64,000 nucleotides of DNA from Nitrospirota bacterium (GCA_963840455.1 CAWIYV010000014.1:512001-576000), one strand, 5' to 3'; positions 6,209 to 15,540 are shown, counted from the stretch's first letter. The notes: generated by a model from the letters alone, not told the origin. A program made the numbers and translations.

Positions 6209-7315
6209 CTATTGCTCAGGAACATATCTGGTCTTGATCAGGACGAGCGCGCCGATGATCGTTCCGCAGATATTGCAGACGAGGTCGGTCGCGGATGAGT
6301 TCCTCATGGGAAGGTAGGCCTGCGTAACTTCTATGGCCAGGCTGAATGCGGTTCCCGCAGTAACGGTAGCAAGCACGACGTGCCTTGCAGAAAGCGAACT
6401 AGTCCCCCGCAGCAGAAAAGAGAAAAAGAAACCGAAGGGAACAAAGCCCGCAATATTGATGAAGATATCCTCGGCGTCCGGCAATAATCGCCAACCCCGT
6501 TCCCAGGGAAGTTCGAGCATGGTGCGGTGGACCGGCTGAAAAGCATGGGTGACCACAAGGTCCGGCAGTGGTCCTGAGCGGTTGACGGCGAGCGGGGCAT
6601 CGCGTCGGTCGAAATCGTATTCCGCAATGACGCCCTGTTCAATCACTGGGGGACGAATGCCGATCTTCGGCCATCCGCGCGCATGCAGCCGTACTTCGTG
6701 GTCCTGCAGCGCACGGTCATAGATCCGCAGGCCCAGAAGATCGCCGCTCCAGAAGGACCGTCCGGGGTGTGCATTGCCGATCACGAGGTATCCTGTAAGT
6801 CGGACCGCACCGGGGAGGAGAGAATGCCGGGGGAAGGTCCGAGCACGGTCGCCGTCCAGGAAGACGGCCGTCTCCTGTTCCGATGCTGTCACCGTGATCA
6901 GGCGGGTCCGGTCTTGATGCAGAGCATTGGCAACGCCGATCTCTCGGTAGCGCTTCGATGGGGGGGATGATCTTTCAGGCCTCCGTATGATCAAGGTCGA
7001 CTTCCACTGGCCGATAAAGAGGTATTCAATGCCGCTGACATCACAGATGGAGACCATGGCAGGAACGTCCTTAAGTGGTTCCTGATGGGGACGGACCAGT
7101 ATCTCGAGACTAAATGACCTGTTCCGGAACAAGGTGTCGGAAAAGGAGAACGGTTCCCGGGAGCGTGCGTTTCCGACACCCGCCAGGCGGAGCCCATTTT
7201 CCTCGCGGAGCAGCATCACCCCGTTGTCCGGATGGAAATCAAAGGGCCAGAGGCCGGCGACAACAAAGACTCCGCAGAGGAGTAGAAGGATCGTTATGAG
7301 GGCTTTCCGATTCAT
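6209..7315 (-). CDS. LamG-like plus VanZ domain membrane protein
   Basis: WSGDLLGLRIYDRAL (LamG-like); NIAGFVPFG, SLAIEVTQAYLPMRNSSATDLVCN (VanZ). Confidence 0.8.
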   Translation of the reverse strand: MNRKALITILLLLCGVFVVAGLWPFDFHPDNGVMLLREENGLRLAGVGNARSREPFSFSDTLFRNRSFSLEILVRPHQEPLKDVPAMVSICDVSGIEYLFIGQWKSTLIIRRPERSSPPSKRYREIGVANALHQDRTRLITVTASEQETAVFLDGDRARTFPRHSLLPGAVRLTGYLVIGNAHPGRSFWSGDLLGLRIYDRALQDHEVRLHARGWPKIGIRPPVIEQGVIAEYDFDRRDAPLAVNRSGPLPDLVVTHAFQPVHRTMLELPWERGWRLLPDAEDIFINIAGFVPFGFFFSFLLRGTSSLSARHVVLATVTAGTAFSLAIEVTQAYLPMRNSSATDLVCNICGTIIGALVLIKTRYVPEQ

Positions 7316-7607
7316 ATTGGTCGCGAGCTTGTCGTTGACACCACGGCATCAGAAATCGGACGGTGAGGGAAGAACATATCTGGCTGATATACAGGAAGAA
7401 GTTCTTGCCCGAAAAATATATCATAAAATCAATGATACAAACAGCATTAAGTGCTTGTCTGAGGACGTATGATAATTATTCCTTGCAAGCAAGGCGCCCA
7501 TAGAACTCGCGGTCTCGAATGGTGGGGTGGAAGGATTTCGTTGGTATGTACCATCGGAGTCTGTTAGAATGGCGCAATCTGCAGCTGAAAACTATCGACT
7601 CCCAAAG

Positions 7608-8078
7608 ATGAACTTCATGCAAAAATTCAAATATTGGATCCCGGTCATCATGACGATGGTATGCATCTATTGGATGTCAACCGATACTCTCTCCTCGCGA
7701 AGTACCATGCATATCATCGAGCCGATACTCCGTTTCTTTGCGCCGTCCCTTTCACGAAAAGAGATCTTCATGATCCACGGCGTTATCCGGAAGGCTGCCC
7801 ATGTGATCGTGTATCTCATCCTCGGGATATTGCTGTTCCGGGCGTTCCGGGCCGGCTCACACGAGCGGCGTTGGTGGCGATGGGTAAGCTCTTCTCTGGC
7901 AGTTGTTGTGCTGTACGCGATGACCGACGAGTTTCACCAGCTGTATGTCTCCGTGAGAACGGCTTCTCTTGTCGATGTCGGCCTTGATACCTTCGGCGGT
8001 TTGCTTGCTCAGCTTGTCAGCGTAATCTATTACGATCGACGGCGGCGGGAAGAACAGCACTTCGAAAACGCACCCTGA
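7608..8078 (+). CDS. VanZ family protein
   Basis: IRKAAHVIVY and YAMTDEFHQLYVSVRTASLVDVGLD. Confidence 0.85.
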   Translation: MNFMQKFKYWIPVIMTMVCIYWMSTDTLSSRSTMHIIEPILRFFAPSLSRKEIFMIHGVIRKAAHVIVYLILGILLFRAFRAGSHERRWWRWVSSSLAVVVLYAMTDEFHQLYVSVRTASLVDVGLDTFGGLLAQLVSVIYYDRRRREEQHFENAP

Positions 8079-8119: not shown

Positions 8120-9235
8120 TTAGTTCTTCTTCCGCGGCTCGGGAAAACAGACCGGACAATAAGGTTCGCCCTCGTCCAGAGGGCAGACGTGCCCTCACTC
8201 GGGACAGCAGATGCAGTCCCTGATCGGGAGCTTGCAGACGGGGCAGAGAGAATCCTTCTCCTCGGCCATTTTAACCATTCTACCGGTAACCAGCACTGTA
8301 TTCCCAAGATCCTTGACCGTCATTTTCTTGAACCCGACCTTCGCGAGCCAGCCCTTCATCTCCTTCGGCGTGTAGCTCCTGCCACCAGCAGTGTTCACCA
8401 GCATGTTCACGGAGAACAGCGCGCCGGGCACCGGCGATGCATGATTCTCGTTCAGCTTGAACTCATGGATCGCGATCTGCCCTCCTGGTGAAAGCGCTTT
8501 GAACACCTTGTTGAGCAGTGCGAGATTCTCGATTGGGCTGTGGGAGTGAAGCACCTGGCTCAGAAGCGCCAGGTCGTAGCCGCTGCCGATCTCGTCGAAA
8601 TGGAAGTCTCCGCCACGGAACGCGATGCCCGTCGCACCGGAGCGTCGGATCAGGTCCTGTGCGACCTCGAGGGTGTCGGGAAGGTCGAATAGGGTGACGA
8701 GGATGCCTTTCTTCGCCAGCTCGATGCCATAGGTGCCTGGTCCGCCGCCCAGGTCCAGCGCTTTTTTCACTCCGCGCAGATCGAGCGCCATGATGACATC
8801 CCTGGCACGCATCATGGCATTGTTGTGCATGGCTTTGATGAACACATCGTGGTCCCTGGTTCCGGCGCGGTTCGGCATACCCGTCCTGACGACCGCTTCG
8901 AGGCCGGACCAGTTCTTCCAGAGCGTGTCCGCGTGCCGCAGCATGTCACCCTGGTACCAGGGGCTGTCCGGGAGGAGGAAGCGCCTTGCCGGGGGAGCGA
9001 GCCGGTAGGTCCTGCCTGACTTCCTGAGCAGTCCCAATGAGGCGACCGCATCGAGCAGGATCTCCGTTGCCCGGGGGTCGGTCTTGAGGACACTGGCCAG
9101 ATCATCAGCGGTGCGGCCCTTCCCGATGTTTTCGAATACCCGAAGATTGTTCGCCGTAAGGATGACCCGCGAGGCGCGGAACCCGCCCCAGAGGCGGGTG
9201 AACTCCATTACTTCCCTGTTCATCGCACTCTCCAT
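8120..9235 (-). CDS. Class I SAM-dependent O-methyltransferase with a Cys-rich C-terminal extension; TGA at 8195-8197 is a candidate selenocysteine codon (conventional end 8195)
   Basis: LDLGGGPG motif and N-terminal dimerisation domain. The tail reads CPVCKLPIRDCICCPE*GHVCPLDEGEPYCPVCFPEPRKKN then TAA. Confidence 0.75.
8163..8194 (-). promoter_or_regulatory. Candidate bacterial SECIS element
   Basis: Directly after UGA: GGGCACGUCU-GCCCUC-UGGAC-GAGGGC, a 6-bp stem with a G-containing loop starting 16 nt after the UGA. Confidence 0.55.
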
Positions 9236-9236
9236 A

Positions 9237-9641
9237 TCATTCTCCTTTCATCGCGCAGGAGAGCCGGCCCATCACGCCCAGGGAGGCTGACAGCGCCCGC
9301 GCCTTCTTCTGCGGTCCTTCCGCAAGGGCCTGGAGAAGCGGTTCGCAGAAGTACCACGTGCATTTCCACGCCCGCTGCCACCGAGGCTTCTCGCATCCCG
9401 AAGCTCCCATGAACTGGCAGGACCCGTCCACTGGCCGGGACGGGTCATGGGGCGGGACCTCCTCACCCAGTGCAGCCAGATAGGCACGGTCATCCTCCGT
9501 GAACAGGCCATGGCGCTGTTTGCAGCAGACCTCGGTGCAGGAGGGGCAGATCTGCCGGGTGTATTCCTCGATGAGCGGCGAACTTTCGATAAGGAGCTGC
9601 TTCAGGCGGCGGGCTGTTTCGGCGGATGAGGAGAGCGTCAT
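9237..9641 (-). CDS. Cys-cluster protein (YkgJ/CxxCxxCC-like)
   Basis: CPSCTEVCC...CQFMGASGC...RAWKCTWYFC. Confidence 0.7.
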   Translation of the reverse strand: MTLSSSAETARRLKQLLIESSPLIEEYTRQICPSCTEVCCKQRHGLFTEDDRAYLAALGEEVPPHDPSRPVDGSCQFMGASGCEKPRWQRAWKCTWYFCEPLLQALAEGPQKKARALSASLGVMGRLSCAMKGE

Positions 9642-9649
9642 AAGGCAGC

Positions 9650-10501
9650 CTACCGTATAATAAGGGTGTCCACGGAGATCAGGATCATTACTGCTGCGAT
9701 AAAAACGTTGATCAGCGGGAAAGCGGCCCGAGGCAGTGATGGTCTGCGCAGCAGCCCGCCTGTACCGAGGGACGACAGCAGCGCTGACAGAAGGAGCAAC
9801 CCGTAGAGCAGCGGAGTGCGTACCATGCCGAAGAGCGGCAGGAGAAGGCTCGCTGCCGCCGCTGCTGCGGTCCAGAGAACAATGATCCCTGAAAGAAGCT
9901 CGCGGGGGAACACCTTCGTGAGTGTCGGCAGTCCGGCCCGTCCGTAGTCGTCAGCTGACCGGAGCAGGAGCAGCCAGAAGTGAGGGACCTGCCAGAGGAA
10001 GAACAACATGGCGACAACGGCAAGGCGGGGGTCAGTGATGCTGCCGCCTCCTGCCGCCCAGCCGATGGCGGGCGCGGCCATGCCGACCGGAGCGCCATAG
10101 ACCGCGGCAAAAGCGGTCTTCCGCTTGAGCCAGGTATAGAGGCCGTTGTACCAGGCCATCGCAAGGACGCCGAGGACAAAGGGCAGCGGTCCGGAGCGGC
10201 CGAGGAGGACGAGACCGGCGAGCATCGCTGTGAACGACGCGATGAGCGCATTGCACGGAGTCAGCAGGCGGGCAGGCAGGGGACGGTACCGGGTGCGCTC
10301 CATCAGTGCATCGATGTCACGTTCCTGGACCTGGTTCAGCGCCGAGGCGCCGCAGGCAAGCAGAAAGACGCCTGCGGCGGTCAAGAAAATGTCCGCTGTT
10401 ATGACAGGCGAAGCCACGATCTGGCCCATGACGGCAGAGCCGGTCACGAATAGCGCGACCGGCAACCGGAAAAGAGTTCGATATGAGGCGAGGGGCGTCA
10501 T
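9650..10501 (-). CDS. cyoE: Protoheme IX farnesyltransferase (heme O synthase)
   Basis: NQVQERDIDALMERTRYRPLP, LWQVPHF and DDYGRAG. Confidence 0.9.
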   Translation of the reverse strand: MTPLASYRTLFRLPVALFVTGSAVMGQIVASPVITADIFLTAAGVFLLACGASALNQVQERDIDALMERTRYRPLPARLLTPCNALIASFTAMLAGLVLLGRSGPLPFVLGVLAMAWYNGLYTWLKRKTAFAAVYGAPVGMAAPAIGWAAGGGSITDPRLAVVAMLFFLWQVPHFWLLLLRSADDYGRAGLPTLTKVFPRELLSGIIVLWTAAAAAASLLLPLFGMVRTPLLYGLLLLSALLSSLGTGGLLRRPSLPRAAFPLINVFIAAVMILISVDTLIIR

Positions 10502-10663
10502 GATCTCACCCAACTGGACAGAAGCTTGAGATTCCTCACGCCACAGAGACAGCCGAGGACGCCGAGAGAAGCCGGACACCTTTTAGCAGGTATTTCTTAG
10601 CTCTCTCTGCCAGTGGCCTGCGGTCATGACCTCTGTGGCAAGAATGGTTTGATGTACTGTGCG

Positions 10664-11596
10664 TCACTTCAGGGTTTTCAGATACTCGATGATCGCATTG
10701 ATCTCGGCGTCCGTGAGCAGGCCCTTTTGCGATGGCATGATGGGCGGAAAGCCCTTGATTCGCGCCTCCTCCGGCTCCAGGAGCTTGTGATGGATGAATG
10801 CCTCGTCCGCGACGGCCTCGGTCTCCTTTCCCGCGCGGATCACGGCCTCTTTTTTCCCGAAGAGCCCTTTGAAGGTCGGCCCGATCTTGGGAGAGCCGTC
10901 TATACTGTGGCATCCCAGACATCCTTTCTCCTGAACGAGGCGGGAGCCGCTCGGGGCAGGAGATGGCCCCTTCGCTGCCGTACCGGCGGCCTTCTCTCCC
11001 TCGCGGTACCAGCTGTCAAAGGCCGCTGCTTGCACGACCTCCACTTTCGTTATCATTGACGAATGTCCCATGCCGCAGTATTCGGTGCAGAAAATGTCGT
11101 AGGTCCCTACCTGGTCCGGCCGGAACCAGAGATAGGTCTCCCGGCCGGGAACTGCGTCCTCTTTCACGCGGAACGCCGGTATGAAGAGGCTGTGGAGCAC
11201 ATCGAGCGAATTGATCGTGAGCTTCACCGGCCTGCCGAGGGGGAGTTTCAGGACGTCGGAATGAGCGCCGTTCCCGTATTCAAATCCCCAGGACCACATG
11301 CGCGCCGTCACCTTCACGACCATGGCATCCTTCGGGACCGTGCGCATGTAAACAAAGCCCTTCCAGCCGACCCAGAAGATCGCCATCACCAGAATCAGCG
11401 GAATGGCCGTCCAGACGATCTCGAGCGCCAGGTTCCCCTCAATGTTCTCCGGTCTAGGGTTCCTGCGCCGGTTGTACCGTACTACGAAATAGAGCATCAC
11501 GCCGGTGGTGCCGGCCAGTAAAATGACCGATATCGTCATGATGAACAGAAAGACGCTGTCTACGGAGCTCGATAGATTTGTCCAGCCGTGCACCAT
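10664..11596 (-). CDS. coxB: Cytochrome c oxidase subunit II with C-terminal cytochrome c domain
   Basis: DVLHS, CuA motif CTEYCGMGHSSM and one CLGCH. Start may be 11611. Confidence 0.95.
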   Translation of the reverse strand: MVHGWTNLSSSVDSVFLFIMTISVILLAGTTGVMLYFVVRYNRRRNPRPENIEGNLALEIVWTAIPLILVMAIFWVGWKGFVYMRTVPKDAMVVKVTARMWSWGFEYGNGAHSDVLKLPLGRPVKLTINSLDVLHSLFIPAFRVKEDAVPGRETYLWFRPDQVGTYDIFCTEYCGMGHSSMITKVEVVQAAAFDSWYREGEKAAGTAAKGPSPAPSGSRLVQEKGCLGCHSIDGSPKIGPTFKGLFGKKEAVIRAGKETEAVADEAFIHHKLLEPEEARIKGFPPIMPSQKGLLTDAEINAIIEYLKTLK

Positions 11597-11677
11597 AATT
11601 ACCTCATTCAAAATTCAGAATCATAATTCAATATTGCTTCACGAAGAAATATTCCCTGTCGAATCTTGAATTTTCTC

Positions 11678-11962
11678 TTACCGATACCAGATATCGAAGA
11701 ACGTGAGCCCGATGATGACCGCAAGGGTCACAATGGGCGCGAGGAACAGGCCTTTGAAGAGCCGGGACTCGTACTTGAGGTGCATGAAGAACCAGAGCAC
11801 CAGTCCTGCCTTGAGCGACGCGATCACAAGCGCGGTCAGCGTGCTGAACCTGCCGAGATGCAGCTCTGCCACCGTTACGGTGATCGCCGTAAGCGCGAGC
11901 AGCGCGAGCCAGACTTTAATGAAGGTCTTTTGCGGGACTATGTGAGCTTCCGGTTCTTTCAT
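11678..11962 (-). CDS. coxD: Cytochrome c oxidase subunit IV
   Basis: IASLKAGLVLWFFMHLKYE and three TM helices. Confidence 0.9.
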   Translation of the reverse strand: MKEPEAHIVPQKTFIKVWLALLALTAITVTVAELHLGRFSTLTALVIASLKAGLVLWFFMHLKYESRLFKGLFLAPIVTLAVIIGLTFFDIWYR

Positions 11963-12019
11963 ATGTTCAGTTGATCTTGTATGCTGAGCCTTAAACGTTG
12001 AACCTTCAACCTCTTTCCC

Positions 12020-12301
12020 CTACCTCAACGGCTCACCGCAGTGCCGGCAATGCGTCGGTGTAAGGATCGACCAAGTGAACAGCTCCATGCCGAGAAACTT
12101 CCGCGGCCTGAGCAGAACGGGCATCCGGCACTTTGGGCAGCGCATGAGGAATGCCACCAGGATGTAGCACACCAGGCTGGCCATGAAGAACCCGATGACC
12201 ATCAGGTGGCCCGCCTGGAAGCCCCAGACGCCCGAGCCGAGCAGCAGGAAGACAATGAACCAGACGATCAGGACGACCTTGTGCTTTGCTCTGCGGCCCA
12301 T
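12020..12301 (-). CDS. Small membrane protein with two CxxC motifs
   Basis: Two TM helices, then CPKC...CRHC. Confidence 0.7.
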   Translation of the reverse strand: MGRRAKHKVVLIVWFIVFLLLGSGVWGFQAGHLMVIGFFMASLVCYILVAFLMRCPKCRMPVLLRPRKFLGMELFTWSILTPTHCRHCGEPLR

Positions 12302-12309
12302 GCGCTTTC

Positions 12310-12924
12310 CTACGTGATCAGATAGAACAGCGGGAACAGATAGATCCAGATCAAATCCACGAGGTGCCAGTAGAGTCCGGCGTTCTCCAGTTTGACTTGG
12401 TCACTACCCGTGATCTGCCGCCTGACAGTCTGTGTCAGCATGATCCCGATGAGGACGAGGCCTGCCACGACATGAAGCCCGTGAAGACCGGTCATGACAT
12501 AGTAGAGACCGTAGAACAATATCTGTCCATGGCCGCGCGCGAGCAGTTCCGGCGCGTTCGGATAGATACCCTCGTGAATATGGCCGCTCCACTCGAAGTA
12601 CTTGTTCACGAGGAAAACGAGGCCCAGGACCATCGTCGCCGCCTGGAACTGGATCGAGCCCCGCGTGTTCCCGCTCTGGAGCGCCGTGATCGCCAGTGCC
12701 ATGGTCAGGCTGCTCGTGAGCAGGATCACCGTGTTGGCCGTGCCAAGGACCACGCTGAGCCCTGCTGCCGCGGCATGGAACTCTGCAGCGTTAACATAGC
12801 GGTAGACCGCGTACACGAGGAAGAGCCCGCCGAAGAGCAGGATCTCGGTGAACAGGAAGAACCACATGCCGAGCTTGGAGCCGGTGTAGTCGCGATGTTC
12901 GGTATTTGCAAGTTCGGTCGTCAT
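12310..12924 (-). CDS. coxC: Cytochrome c oxidase subunit III
   Basis: LGMWFFLFTEILLFGGLF, TGLHGLHV and YWHLVDLIWIYLFP. Confidence 0.95.
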   Translation of the reverse strand: MTTELANTEHRDYTGSKLGMWFFLFTEILLFGGLFLVYAVYRYVNAAEFHAAAAGLSVVLGTANTVILLTSSLTMALAITALQSGNTRGSIQFQAATMVLGLVFLVNKYFEWSGHIHEGIYPNAPELLARGHGQILFYGLYYVMTGLHGLHVVAGLVLIGIMLTQTVRRQITGSDQVKLENAGLYWHLVDLIWIYLFPLFYLIT

Positions 12925-13084
12925 AGGGTCGAGGCAAGAGAGATGAAAAGGCATTCAACGCATACAAAAGCTGATCAATTACGATGAACGCTGAGATCCT
13001 GTTCTGGCCTTCATGCTAGGTAAATATCATGGCTCTCTGCAGCGATCGACAGCGTCGAATGCATGTCGTCTATTGCATGCACGG

Positions 13085-14671
13085 TCACTTGTAGCTATAT
13101 GGCCCTGTCGTGACCTCGGGCACTTTCTCGAAGTTCTCCGTGGGCGGCGGAGATGATGTCTGCCACTCCAGCGTAGTTCCGCCCCAGGGATTGTTCCCCA
13201 CGCGCGTACCGCTGCGCATGGACCGGAGCAGGTTCACGAGCATGAGGATGATACCCGTGGCAAGGATCCAGGAGCCGATGGTCGAGATGAGGTGGCCGGT
13301 GTGGTACTTCGGCAGGTAGTCGTAGTACCGCCGGGGCATGCCCTCCCAGCCGAGGACGAACATGGGGAAGTAGAGCGTATTGAACCCTATGAACAGGAAG
13401 GCGCAGGCGATCCTCGCCCGTTTCTCATTGTACATCCTGCCCCAGATCTTGGGGAACCAGTAGTGCAGTCCGGCGAAGAAGGCGAAGACCGTGCCGCCAA
13501 ACATAACGTAGTGGAAGTGGGCCACGATGAAGTAAGTGCCGTGGACCTGCACGTTCGTAGCAAGCGCCCCCTGGAGAAGCCCCGTCAGCCCTCCGATGGA
13601 GAAGAGAAAGATGAAACAGAGGGTGAAGAGCAGGGGCGCGTCCACCTGGATGGAGCCTTTGTACATACTGGCAATCCAGTTGAAGATCTTGATGCCGCTC
13701 GGGATCGCCACGAGGAAGGTGAGGAGCGAGAAGATCATCCGCGCTTCGTCGCTCATGCCGCTGGTGAACATGTGGTGGCCCCAGACGAGGTAGCCGAAGA
13801 GCGCGATGCCCAGGCTGGAGAATGCGATGGCCTTGTACCCGAAGATTGTGCGGCGACTGAAGACAGGGATGATCTCGGTGACGACGCCCATGCCCGGCAG
13901 GATCATGATGTAGACAGCCGGATGCGAGTAGATCCAGAAGAGATGCTCGAAAAGGATGGGGTCTCCGCCCTTGGCGGGATCGAAGAAACCGATGCCGAAG
14001 GAGCGTTCGAGGATGATCATTACGAGCGTGATGGCAATGATCGGCGTCGCCAGAAGTTGGACCCACGCCGTGGCGTAAAGTGACCAGGCGAAGAGCGGCA
14101 TGCGGAACCACGTCATGCCGGGCGCCCGCATGCGATGGATCGTGGTAAGGAAGTTAAGCCCCGTGAGCGTGGACGAGATGCCGAGAAGGAACACGCCGAA
14201 CACAGCCAGGGAAACGTTGGTGCCGGTGCGGACGCTGTAGGGAACATAGAAGGTCCAGCCCGTGTCCGGCGGACCGCCGCCGGTGAAGAGCGAGGTGATG
14301 ACAACCGCGGCGCCGGTGATGTAAAACCACCACGACAGGAGATTGATCCGAGGGAAGGCAACGTCTTGCGCGCCGAGTTGGAGCGGCAGCAGGAAGTTGC
14401 CGAGCGCAGCCGGGATGCCGGGGATGATGAAGAGGAAAATCATGATCACGCCATGGAGGGTGAACAGTGCGTTGTAGGTCTGCGCCGAGATGAAGTGCGT
14501 ACCGGGAGCGATGAGCTCGAAGCGCATGGTGAGGCCGAGCGTCATGCCCGTCAGAAAGAACGTGAAGATGCAGGCAAGGTACAGGAGGCCGATCCGCTTG
14601 TGGTCCGTGGAGAATATCCATGCGCGGATGCCAGTGTATTTTCCCGGAGTATCGTAGAAGCTGGTTTCCAT
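13085..14671 (-). CDS. coxA: Cytochrome c oxidase subunit I, type A2
   Basis: STDHKRIG, GWTFY, YSHPAVY, VWGHHM, AHFHYV and GMPRRY. Confidence 0.97.
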   Translation of the reverse strand: METSFYDTPGKYTGIRAWIFSTDHKRIGLLYLACIFTFFLTGMTLGLTMRFELIAPGTHFISAQTYNALFTLHGVIMIFLFIIPGIPAALGNFLLPLQLGAQDVAFPRINLLSWWFYITGAAVVITSLFTGGGPPDTGWTFYVPYSVRTGTNVSLAVFGVFLLGISSTLTGLNFLTTIHRMRAPGMTWFRMPLFAWSLYATAWVQLLATPIIAITLVMIILERSFGIGFFDPAKGGDPILFEHLFWIYSHPAVYIMILPGMGVVTEIIPVFSRRTIFGYKAIAFSSLGIALFGYLVWGHHMFTSGMSDEARMIFSLLTFLVAIPSGIKIFNWIASMYKGSIQVDAPLLFTLCFIFLFSIGGLTGLLQGALATNVQVHGTYFIVAHFHYVMFGGTVFAFFAGLHYWFPKIWGRMYNEKRARIACAFLFIGFNTLYFPMFVLGWEGMPRRYYDYLPKYHTGHLISTIGSWILATGIILMLVNLLRSMRSGTRVGNNPWGGTTLEWQTSSPPPTENFEKVPEVTTGPYSYK

Positions 14672-14745
14672 AATGAGAGGCCAAAACCCCTTTGCCACAG
14701 GGTTGGCAGCCGCAGGCTGAAGCTTGCGGTTGCCAATCCATTACT

Positions 14746-15540
14746 CTATGCCGAGCCCCGCTTCTTCGTTGTCACCACAAGATAGAGGAAGAACGAGACC
14801 AACGTCAGGATCATCACGGTCCCCACGACCTTCAGGATGTTAAAGACGTAGGACTTCTTGAGCGGGTCGTAGCTGAAGCAATAGTTGAGCACCCTCGCGG
14901 CGGGTGTTCCGGTCCTGCCTTGAGCCGCCTCGGTGATCGCCATCGTGAGCTCGAAGGGCAGGAAGGTCGTTCCGTAGAGATACCGGACGACCTTTCCTCC
15001 CGGCGCGAGGATGATCACGACAACAGGATGGGAGAAGTCCTCTCCGTCGCGCTGGAATGTGAACCCCACGGCATCGGTGAACTTCCTGATGTTGGCGTTG
15101 TCGCCGGTCAGGAACGGCCACGCGTCCGTCGGGAAGGGTCTGCCGACGGCGGCGATGTAGTTCGGCTTCTTTTCCCGCGCCACCTCCGGACCCTCCTGTT
15201 CGTCAAAGCTGAGAGCGACGACACGGAAGTCCTTGCCCGGCTGCACGAGGTCCAGCTTGCCAAGGGTCTCGGCGAGGTTCGTCAGGAGCAGGGGGCAGAC
15301 ATGGGAACAGTGAAGGTAGACCGGTGCGATGATGGTGGGACGGTCCACGAGGCTCCTCAAGTTCACGGGTCTTCCGTTCTCGTCCTTGAGCGAAATATCT
15401 GCTGGGATGACGACCCCGAGTTTCTCGTCCAGCGAGATGTTGGCCGAGGTCGCCGTCGTTTCGTGGGCCGGCGCAGGAGCGGCGGCAACAAGGAGGAACA
15501 AAAGGAGAAGCAGTCTGCGCACGGGAGACCTCCCGGTCAA
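14746..15540 (-). CDS. SCO family copper chaperone
   Basis: CSHVCP, FSHP and YCFSYDP. Start approximate. Confidence 0.9.
   Translation of the reverse strand: MTGRSPVRRLLLLLFLLVAAAPAPAHETTATSANISLDEKLGVVIPADISLKDENGRPVNLRSLVDRPTIIAPVYLHCSHVCPLLLTNLAETLGKLDLVQPGKDFRVVALSFDEQEGPEVAREKKPNYIAAVGRPFPTDAWPFLTGDNANIRKFTDAVGFTFQRDGEDFSHPVVVIILAPGGKVVRYLYGTTFLPFELTMAITEAAQGRTGTPAARVLNYCFSYDPLKKSYVFNILKVVGTVMILTLVSFFLYLVVTTKKRGSA

Follow-up and report, generated by a model that had tools for sequence, protein, structure and literature searches.

A methyltransferase gene in a Nitrospirota bacterium raises the question of whether the TGA at which its reading frame appears to end is a stop codon at all. 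The gene lies on the minus strand of a stretch of 64,000 nucleotides (GCA_963840455.1, CAWIYV010000014.1:512001-576000), here called the window. Its open reading frame (ORF) runs from an ATG at 9235 to a TGA at 8195-8197 and encodes 346 amino acids. When this TGA is read as U, 24 further codons follow before a TAA at 8120-8122, and the translation of 8120-9235 (minus strand) ends in ...MAEEKDSLCPVCKLPIRDCICCPE-U-GHVCPLDEGEPYCPVCFPEPRKKN-TAA. An initial annotation of the DNA had quoted the same read-through frame, and our translation at these positions was identical to it. From comparison with related sequences, we consider it very probable that the TGA is a selenocysteine (Sec) codon within a cysteine-rich module, which most relatives encode as a free-standing small gene. 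The features that bear on this prediction are the following.

8195-8197, minus strand: in-frame TGA predicted to be read as Sec, residue 347 of the fusion protein and residue 25 of the module, aligned with TGA at 90 and with Cys at 20 of 110 loci.
8120-8269, minus strand: small Cys-rich module from the ATG at 8269 to the TAA at 8120-8122, 49 amino acids with eight Cys, one predicted Sec and one invariant His (alignments).
8167-8185, minus strand: hairpin resembling a selenocysteine insertion sequence (SECIS), with a 7-bp stem UGCCCUC/GAGGGCG and the loop UGGAC (RNAfold and 63 Sec forms).
8179-8196, minus strand: alternative hairpin GAGGGCA/UGCCCUC, which includes the GA of the UGA (folding of the free 45-nucleotide RNA).
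8267-8290, minus strand: junction of methyltransferase and module, with a one-nucleotide deletion relative to relatives (junction alignment and frame comparison).
8279-9235, minus strand: S-adenosylmethionine (SAM)-dependent O-methyltransferase-family domain (residues 1-319) with an N-terminal dimerisation domain (Pfam).

Comparison with relatives separated the read-through protein into two parts. When the whole protein was searched against 40 relatives, methyltransferase homologues aligned only to residues 1 to ~320, and residues 320-369 had matches of their own, small ORFs that almost all contained one in-frame TGA. A search with the 52-amino-acid tail across 301 genomes of the phylum, window genome included, matched 73 genomes at an E value of 0.01 or less, six of which were weak (E > 0.001) and were not counted. 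Among the 72 matches at E ≤ 1.1e-8, 16 had no TGA and 56 carried an in-frame TGA; the codon is shared with other genomes of the phylum rather than unique to this assembly, a point on which the initial annotation had staked its proposal. Scanning one genome per species for the pattern yielded 94 confirmed relatives, 80 of which were kept. Most of these (73 out of 80) bore taxon labels of Nitrospirota, Nitrospirae or Thermodesulfovibrionia lineages, two were labelled Deltaproteobacteria and one Thermodesulfobacteriota.

The fetched loci (L027-L136, n = 110) pool two partly overlapping searches, and all of them contained the module, with TGA or Cys at the same column in the numbers listed above. 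A strict motif was present at 95 loci (82 TGA, 13 Cys), and the other 15 were variants such as U-S-H, CFCxU and CCEAC (8 TGA, 7 Cys). The protein database supplied a further 76 Cys-form proteins. Across an alignment of 91 sequences, C9, C12, C21, C22, H27, C29, C38 and C41 were invariant, and C19, P23, E24, U/C25, G26, G34, P39, V40 and P43 were conserved in at least 90% of members; C19 was replaced by D in L051 and by G in L108. The module follows the pattern CxxC-x6-CxCC-x2-U-[G/S]-H-x-C-x8-CxxC over roughly 45-60 amino acids. The initial annotation had placed the TGA where the second Cys of a CPECG zinc knuckle belongs, in a domain of about 49 amino acids with eight Cys and one Sec codon; the residue count in the window agrees, and the Cys homologues read CCPECGH. 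One genome held two module copies ~740 nucleotides apart (G235:C501:6008-6148 and 6885-7025), one with the TGA and one without, which may be a Sec/Cys paralogue pair.

Sequence beyond the TGA showed the variability expected of coding DNA. Among 62 distinct Sec-form sequences, variability at codon positions 1, 2 and 3 was 0.047, 0.086 and 0.36 in the 16 codons after the TGA, and 0.038, 0.027 and 0.371 in the six codons before it. The same codon-position pattern on both sides indicates selection on the protein beyond the TGA, and the downstream conservation on which the initial annotation had made its proposal depend is therefore present. Bacterial selenoproteins are recognized by a Cys in the UGA column of homologues and by conserved in-frame coding past the UGA, and both were found here. 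Dozens of other genomes have the same TGA with the same flanks and a hairpin in the corresponding position, a recurrence beyond what chance would produce.

A GC-rich hairpin followed the UGA in all 63 distinct Sec forms, beginning 12-14 nucleotides after the U of the UGA and lying within the C-(P/L)-L-D-x-G-E codons, at the usual place of a bacterial SECIS element. In the window, the stem begins 10 nucleotides past the last base of the UGA (position 13, counting the U as 1), and RNAfold gave the hairpin an energy of -12.1 kcal/mol (z = -3.0), with 4 of 200 shuffled sequences folding equally well. The GCCCUC/GAGGGC stem described in the initial annotation, with its UGGAC loop beginning 16 nucleotides past the UGA, is present, and RNAfold lengthens the stem to 7 bp. 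Bacterial SECIS elements require an early G in their loop. Among the Sec forms, the motif within or next to the loop was CUGGA in 58, CGGGA in three, and UUGGA and CUUGG in one each. Hairpins of similar size, position and energy also follow the UGA of two other genes in the window genome, selD and a member of the family NF041197.

Sec and Cys forms differed both in folding and in codon choice. The 26-nucleotide segment had a mean free energy of -9.5 kcal/mol in the 63 Sec forms compared with -3.7 kcal/mol in 13 distinct Cys forms, from which the hairpin was mostly absent. The third base of the Leu31 codon was G in every Sec form (CTG 59, CGG 3, TTG 1), whereas CTG was used in only 2 of 13 Cys forms. 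The Gly34 codon was GGG in 48 of the Sec forms and in one Cys form, and the Cys29 codon was TGC in 61 Sec forms compared with 8 Cys forms. At residue 30, Sec forms contained Pro or Leu only (codons CYC/CYT), whereas Cys forms contained many different residues. For Cys38, which lies outside the hairpin, Sec forms used TGT 39 times and TGC 24 times, and Cys forms used TGC 8 times and TGT 5 times. We interpret this contrast in codon choice as a constraint that belongs to the Sec forms.

The genome from which the window comes (14 contigs, 4.03 Mb) encodes machinery for Sec insertion. It contains selA (525 bits), an adjoining selB identified via its winged-helix domain, selD (360 bits, with one in-frame TGA of its own) and a canonical-looking tRNA-Sec, so the absence of selA, selB or selC, which the initial annotation had named as a possible objection, does not apply. 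SelB would bind the hairpin and deliver Sec-tRNA-Sec to the UGA. In selD (G000:C14:252661-253584, locus L003), the TGA is the tenth codon of the match (...SRTCG-U-AAKIG...) and is followed by an 8-bp hairpin. The NF041197 (CxxC_Se_CxxC) gene, at G000:C14:84698-84853 (locus L138), also has an in-frame TGA and scored 53.6 bits, and it encodes another small Sec protein of this genome, unrelated in sequence to the module.

Several observations nevertheless weigh against decoding as Sec. Strict covariation in the hairpin was weak: 92.3% of cells pair in the majority register, two-sided change occurred in one of five pairs, 28 of 500 shuffles reached the observed covariation score, and RNAalifold found no compensatory pairs. 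The stem sets a run of C against a run of G, and its register slips, for example with the Gly codon GGC or GGG. Given the weak covariation, the case for the hairpin rests on its conservation and on the contrast between Sec and Cys forms. A search of Rfam found no matching family for the hairpin, and at E ≤ 10 it returned only a chance microRNA match. The alternative hairpin overlapping the UGA, which the initial annotation had also pointed out, exists; it competes with the SECIS-like hairpin for the GCCCUC strand and is the minimum-free-energy structure of the window's free 45-nucleotide RNA. By our reading of the folds, a comparable upstream hairpin is the minimum-free-energy structure in a minority of the 63 Sec forms only and is not conserved across the family. 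Finally, ARAGORN identified a second tRNA with the anticodon UCA (G000:C9:389438-389532) that could read the UGA as Cys. As read from the ARAGORN drawing alone, its acceptor stem measures 8 bp and its T stem 4 bp, and a U precedes the CC end, features that resemble SelC* tRNA-Cys. Passages of Mukai et al. describe SelC* tRNA-Cys in Thermodesulfovibrio and Nitrospirae and opal-to-Cys decoding shown for a deltaproteobacterial example (PMC5389517), and the UGA might be read partly or mainly as Cys by such a SelC*-type tRNA-Cys(UCA), for example at low selenium. We judge this unlikely: a canonical tRNA-Sec and selA are present, and the Sec-specific hairpin and codon constraints indicate that SelB-type recoding is under selection, regardless of which tRNA is delivered.

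The TGA could also be a true stop, produced by a recent TGC-to-TGA mutation or by pseudogenisation or serving as the normal end of the methyltransferase, with the downstream peptide unmade. Gene callers and public databases do give only Cys forms of the module, and TGA is the ordinary stop of 4 of 16 checked window genes, a count that led us to reject a general reassignment of TGA. However, the codon stands at the same column in 90 out of 110 loci across many genera, the 16 codons past it are under in-frame purifying selection, no start codon follows it, and methyltransferase homologues end ~27 codons ahead of it. The chance that it is a true stop seems to us negligible, and its conservation excludes the simple TGC-to-TGA mutation that the initial annotation had kept as an alternative.

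With Sec as the preferred reading of the UGA, the form of the product depends on the junction with the methyltransferase. The methyltransferases of relatives terminate in ...VTGRKR followed by a stop codon (TAA, TAG or TGA), and the small gene starts 1-5 nucleotides past this stop, in another frame and behind the purine-rich stretch GGAAGGAAG. The junction alignment shows that the window lacks one base between the conserved ACCGG and the ATG. This one-nucleotide deletion places the methyltransferase TAA out of frame and joins both genes in one frame via the linker MVK. A contig from run X1, which may be the source sample, spans 8142-8292 with no differences, and one from run X2, which belongs to a different study, aligns over 8181-8331 without a gap and with a single substitution (T>C at 8271). 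Since the junction appears without an indel in contigs from two public runs, it is not an assembly slip, and the one-base difference in X2 indicates at least another strain. The deletion would thus have removed the methyltransferase stop from the frame in this genome, and translation through the UGA would yield a 371-amino-acid methyltransferase-selenodomain fusion. This predicted product is encoded by the last gene of a row that includes cytochrome-oxidase genes, ctaB and p134, a gene for a 134-amino-acid protein.

The initial annotation had left undecided whether the module is fused or separate: the fused frame holds here, where no stop lies between methyltransferase and module, and the separate gene holds in relatives. 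It is possible, though we think it doubtful, that the module is still translated alone from the ATG at 8269 or another at 8278, and not only as part of the fusion. The two-gene arrangement, with its start 1-5 nucleotides past the methyltransferase stop, is ancestral, and the ATG has been retained; yet no stop is left between the two reading frames, and the purine-rich, ribosome-binding stretch of relatives is degraded ahead of the window ATG. The enzyme portion of the predicted fusion is well defined. Residues 1-319 matched PF00891 above its gathering score (92.6 bits, cut-off 22.3), and the dimerisation domain matched PF08100 (48.1 bits, cut-off 25.6); PF13649 scored 32 bits, below PF00891.

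Two further features describe the genes upstream of the methyltransferase.

9237-9641, minus strand: p134, a 134-amino-acid Cys-rich protein whose stop overlaps the methyltransferase start region (no Pfam or NCBIfam match).
9650-15540, minus strand: closely spaced gene row of SCO1/SenC, COX1, COX3, COX4, COX2-cytochrome c and a UbiA-family prenyltransferase (CtaB-like) (Pfam).

The row forms a complete aa3-type heme-copper oxidase set (SCO1, COX1, COX3, COX4, COX2 with a fused cytochrome c, and CtaB-like) that immediately precedes p134 and the methyltransferase and shares their strand, and the gene order ctaB-p134-methyltransferase recurs in the genus. The p134 protein, which has the Cys pattern CxxCxxxCC ... 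CxxxxxxxC ... CxxxxC, shows conservation in Nitrospirota and linkage to both the methyltransferase and the small gene. For p134, the Atlas gave a weak lead only, to the YkgJ CxxCxxCC family (0.83). Among 76 distinct loci, p134 lay upstream of the small gene in six, directly so in L035 and L049, and the methyltransferase lay upstream in four. On the 3' side of the module, two VanZ-family genes are found at 6209-7315 (minus strand) and 7527-8078 (plus strand). One of them has a concanavalin/laminin-G-like domain, and the other runs towards the selenoprotein gene and stops 42 nucleotides short of the module TAA.

Neighbouring genes across the family were mostly unrelated housekeeping genes. The commonest, named from sequence rather than from a family search, were YajQ-like (15 loci), NfeD-like and DnaX-like (nine each), and RNase III-like and FabF/ACP-like (5-7). 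We rejected a function based on operon context, as the 76 distinct loci shared no conserved functional neighbour, and we also rejected a reading of the module as a precursor of a bacteriocin or other ribosomally synthesized and post-translationally modified peptide, as no maturase-like neighbour occurred among the recurrent clusters. A gene for TadA (tRNA adenosine deaminase) lay directly downstream in 5 out of 13 distinct Cys-form loci, in the same frame in four of them (fused in L065, L075, L085 and L090; adjacent only in L087), and in none of the 63 Sec forms. Two database proteins (P0082 and P0027) are likewise module-TadA fusions, with the Cys form of the module at the N-terminus. Together, the methyltransferase fusion and the TadA fusions indicate that the module has been joined to enzymes at least twice, and it appears attachable to enzymes, to a methyltransferase here and to TadA in some Cys forms.

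The composition of the module suggests a double zinc-ribbon or rubredoxin-like metal-binding unit in which Sec replaces the second ligand of a central CPxCG-type knuckle, an assignment based on motifs that we hold at a little under even chances. In such a knuckle, Sec would act as a soft-metal ligand or as part of a redox-active CxxU centre. The excess of Sec over Cys forms (90 vs 20) suggests a chemical role for selenium beyond a purely structural one. At E ≤ 1, the 91 family members matched the Pfam models Zn_Ribbon_1 (44 members), the rubrerythrin rubredoxin-like domain (35), the TFIIB ribbon (34) and the double zinc ribbon (31). At the same threshold, matches to PF13240 and its relatives were found in 44 of 91 members, the best at 1.9e-06; the window module had no such match. 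A profile search of the Protein Data Bank (PDB) gave weak matches (E 0.013-0.06) to a RING finger, the zinc ribbon of archaeal RNA polymerase subunit B, rubredoxin, rubrerythrin and PsaC. The RNA polymerase match (CxxCGH...YCPxC; E 0.017) aligned CCPECGHvCplDeGepYCPvC with vCesCGHlalEDkrrGkvYCPvC. According to this alignment, one four-ligand site would consist of C22/U25 and C38/C41, and C9/C12 with C19/C21 (and H27/C29) would be left for a second.

Other results tell against this functional assignment. The zinc-ribbon and rubredoxin similarities all fell below curated cut-offs, and the window's own module matched PF23545 only, at E 0.42. AlphaFold2 models were of low confidence and were not used (predicted local distance difference test score 68.6 with a 25-row alignment and 65.2 with a 91-row alignment), Foldseek found no match in the PDB, and the 76 distinct loci offered no functional neighbour conserved across the phylum. 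The module could instead bind iron and serve as a small electron carrier, with a rubredoxin-type Fe(Cys)3(Sec) site or a [4Fe-4S] cluster. The spacing C19-x2-C22-x2-U25-x3-C29-P fits the ferredoxin motif CxxCxxCxxxCP, the profile matches to PsaC (E 0.04-0.06), rubredoxin and rubrerythrin point in this direction, as do the 35 members with the rubrerythrin rubredoxin-like domain, and the Joint Genome Institute label 'rubrerythrin' is attached to two Cys forms. However, C19 is not invariant, all of the profile matches are non-significant, and fusions to a methyltransferase and to TadA suit a zinc-ribbon adaptor better than an electron carrier; iron binding seems to us improbable, with perhaps an outside chance.

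A more speculative extension of the zinc-knuckle assignment, drawn by analogy, is that the module could be a selenium-containing metal knuckle, with Sec as a ligand or reactive centre, that serves modification enzymes as a portable adaptor or a regulatory cofactor, much as Trm112 serves methyltransferases, and that was captured independently by the methyltransferase in this genome and, as Cys forms, by TadA; we consider this a long shot. Trm112-type proteins are small zinc-binding partners of methyltransferases. Both cases involve a small zinc-knuckle protein that is fused to a class I methyltransferase or encoded next to one. In contrast with Trm112-type proteins, the module showed no significant similarity (PF03966 weakly matched 9 of 91 members, best E 0.034), and only 4 of the 76 distinct module loci adjoin a methyltransferase. 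If this idea were true, the module would be the first selenoprotein whose role is partnering or controlling modification enzymes.

Comparison with known families supported the statement in the initial annotation that this is not a described family, as far as the sources compared extend. No Pfam model covers the module tail. NCBIfam (release 20) gave no match to the window module at E ≤ 1, and its selenoprotein models matched none of the 91 family members at E ≤ 0.1. The Cys forms in databases are named 'hypothetical protein' apart from two automatic 'rubrerythrin' labels, and the Sec forms are invisible to protein databases. A profile search of 1.84 billion cluster representatives returned 32 proteins at E ≤ 0.001, 27 of them at E ≤ 1e-10, and so few matches indicate that the family is narrow. 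A 2026 review tabulates 119 prokaryotic selenoprotein families, and none of the 119, as described in the sections of the review used here, has a motif and size like those of the module (PMC13188914). Full-text literature searches returned no description of the module family; supplementary selenoprotein lists and Haft & Tolstoy 2025 lay outside this comparison and may list it.

The closest described selenoproteins share general traits with the module. The dual CXXC motif small selenoproteins (OS_HP3, NF041197) are likewise ~50-60 amino acids long and carry a single Sec flanked by two CxxC pairs, one close to either end, but they have four Cys and a G-U-K context, whereas the module has eight Cys and a His, with the predicted Sec in a CxxU[G/S]HxC knuckle. 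The NF041197 model, for which members score above 40 bits, found no match at the module locus at E ≤ 1, and as a positive control it did find the other TGA gene in the window genome. In the same sections of the review, NF041239 (CC/Se motif, CxxU) and the FmdB-family zinc ribbon TIGR02605 (UxxU) also appear as small, Cys-rich, putatively metal-binding or regulatory proteins with CxxU or UxxU motifs (PMC13188914). NF041239, whose members also score above 40 bits, did not match at the module locus; its best match in the genome lay elsewhere (11.5 bits, E 0.87).

A SAM-methyltransferase domain with a Sec motif is likewise found in the methyltransferase selenoproteins listed there, namely arsenite methyltransferase, MduS and the methyltransferase/UXPK-star double selenoprotein (PMC13188914). 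As tabulated, MduS has CxxU, PF13649 and two Sec (Haft & Tolstoy 2025 via PMC13188914). Compared by this tabulated description only, the window protein differs in having one predicted Sec and best matches to PF00891 and PF08100, and it differs from the methyltransferase selenoproteins as a group in that its Sec module was ancestrally a separate gene. Zinc ribbons and rubredoxin knuckles, such as the C-terminal ribbon of archaeal RNA polymerase B and the rubrerythrin rubredoxin-like domain, resemble the module in pairing a CPxCG-type knuckle with a CPxC knuckle. The module differs from them in having ~10 potential ligands rather than four, with the predicted Sec at one, and the E values reached only 0.01-0.06.

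Overall, the module appears to be a new family within a well-known kind, the bacterial Sec/Cys-pair selenoproteins with a SECIS element in the coding region, and involves no new mechanism. If confirmed, it would be a selenoprotein family that current annotation has missed entirely, with gene callers either truncating the gene, as in the window, where the methyltransferase appears to end at the TGA, or skipping the module gene. The annotation of the window methyltransferase should accordingly read 371 rather than 346 amino acids, if the prediction holds. The contrast between Sec and Cys forms in hairpin and codons would provide a clean natural example of an RNA signal inside a coding sequence. 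The predicted Sec occupies a place like that of a zinc-knuckle ligand and not one within a thioredoxin fold, and the very small, Cys-rich family could offer a compact system in which to study the role of selenium in a metal or redox site.

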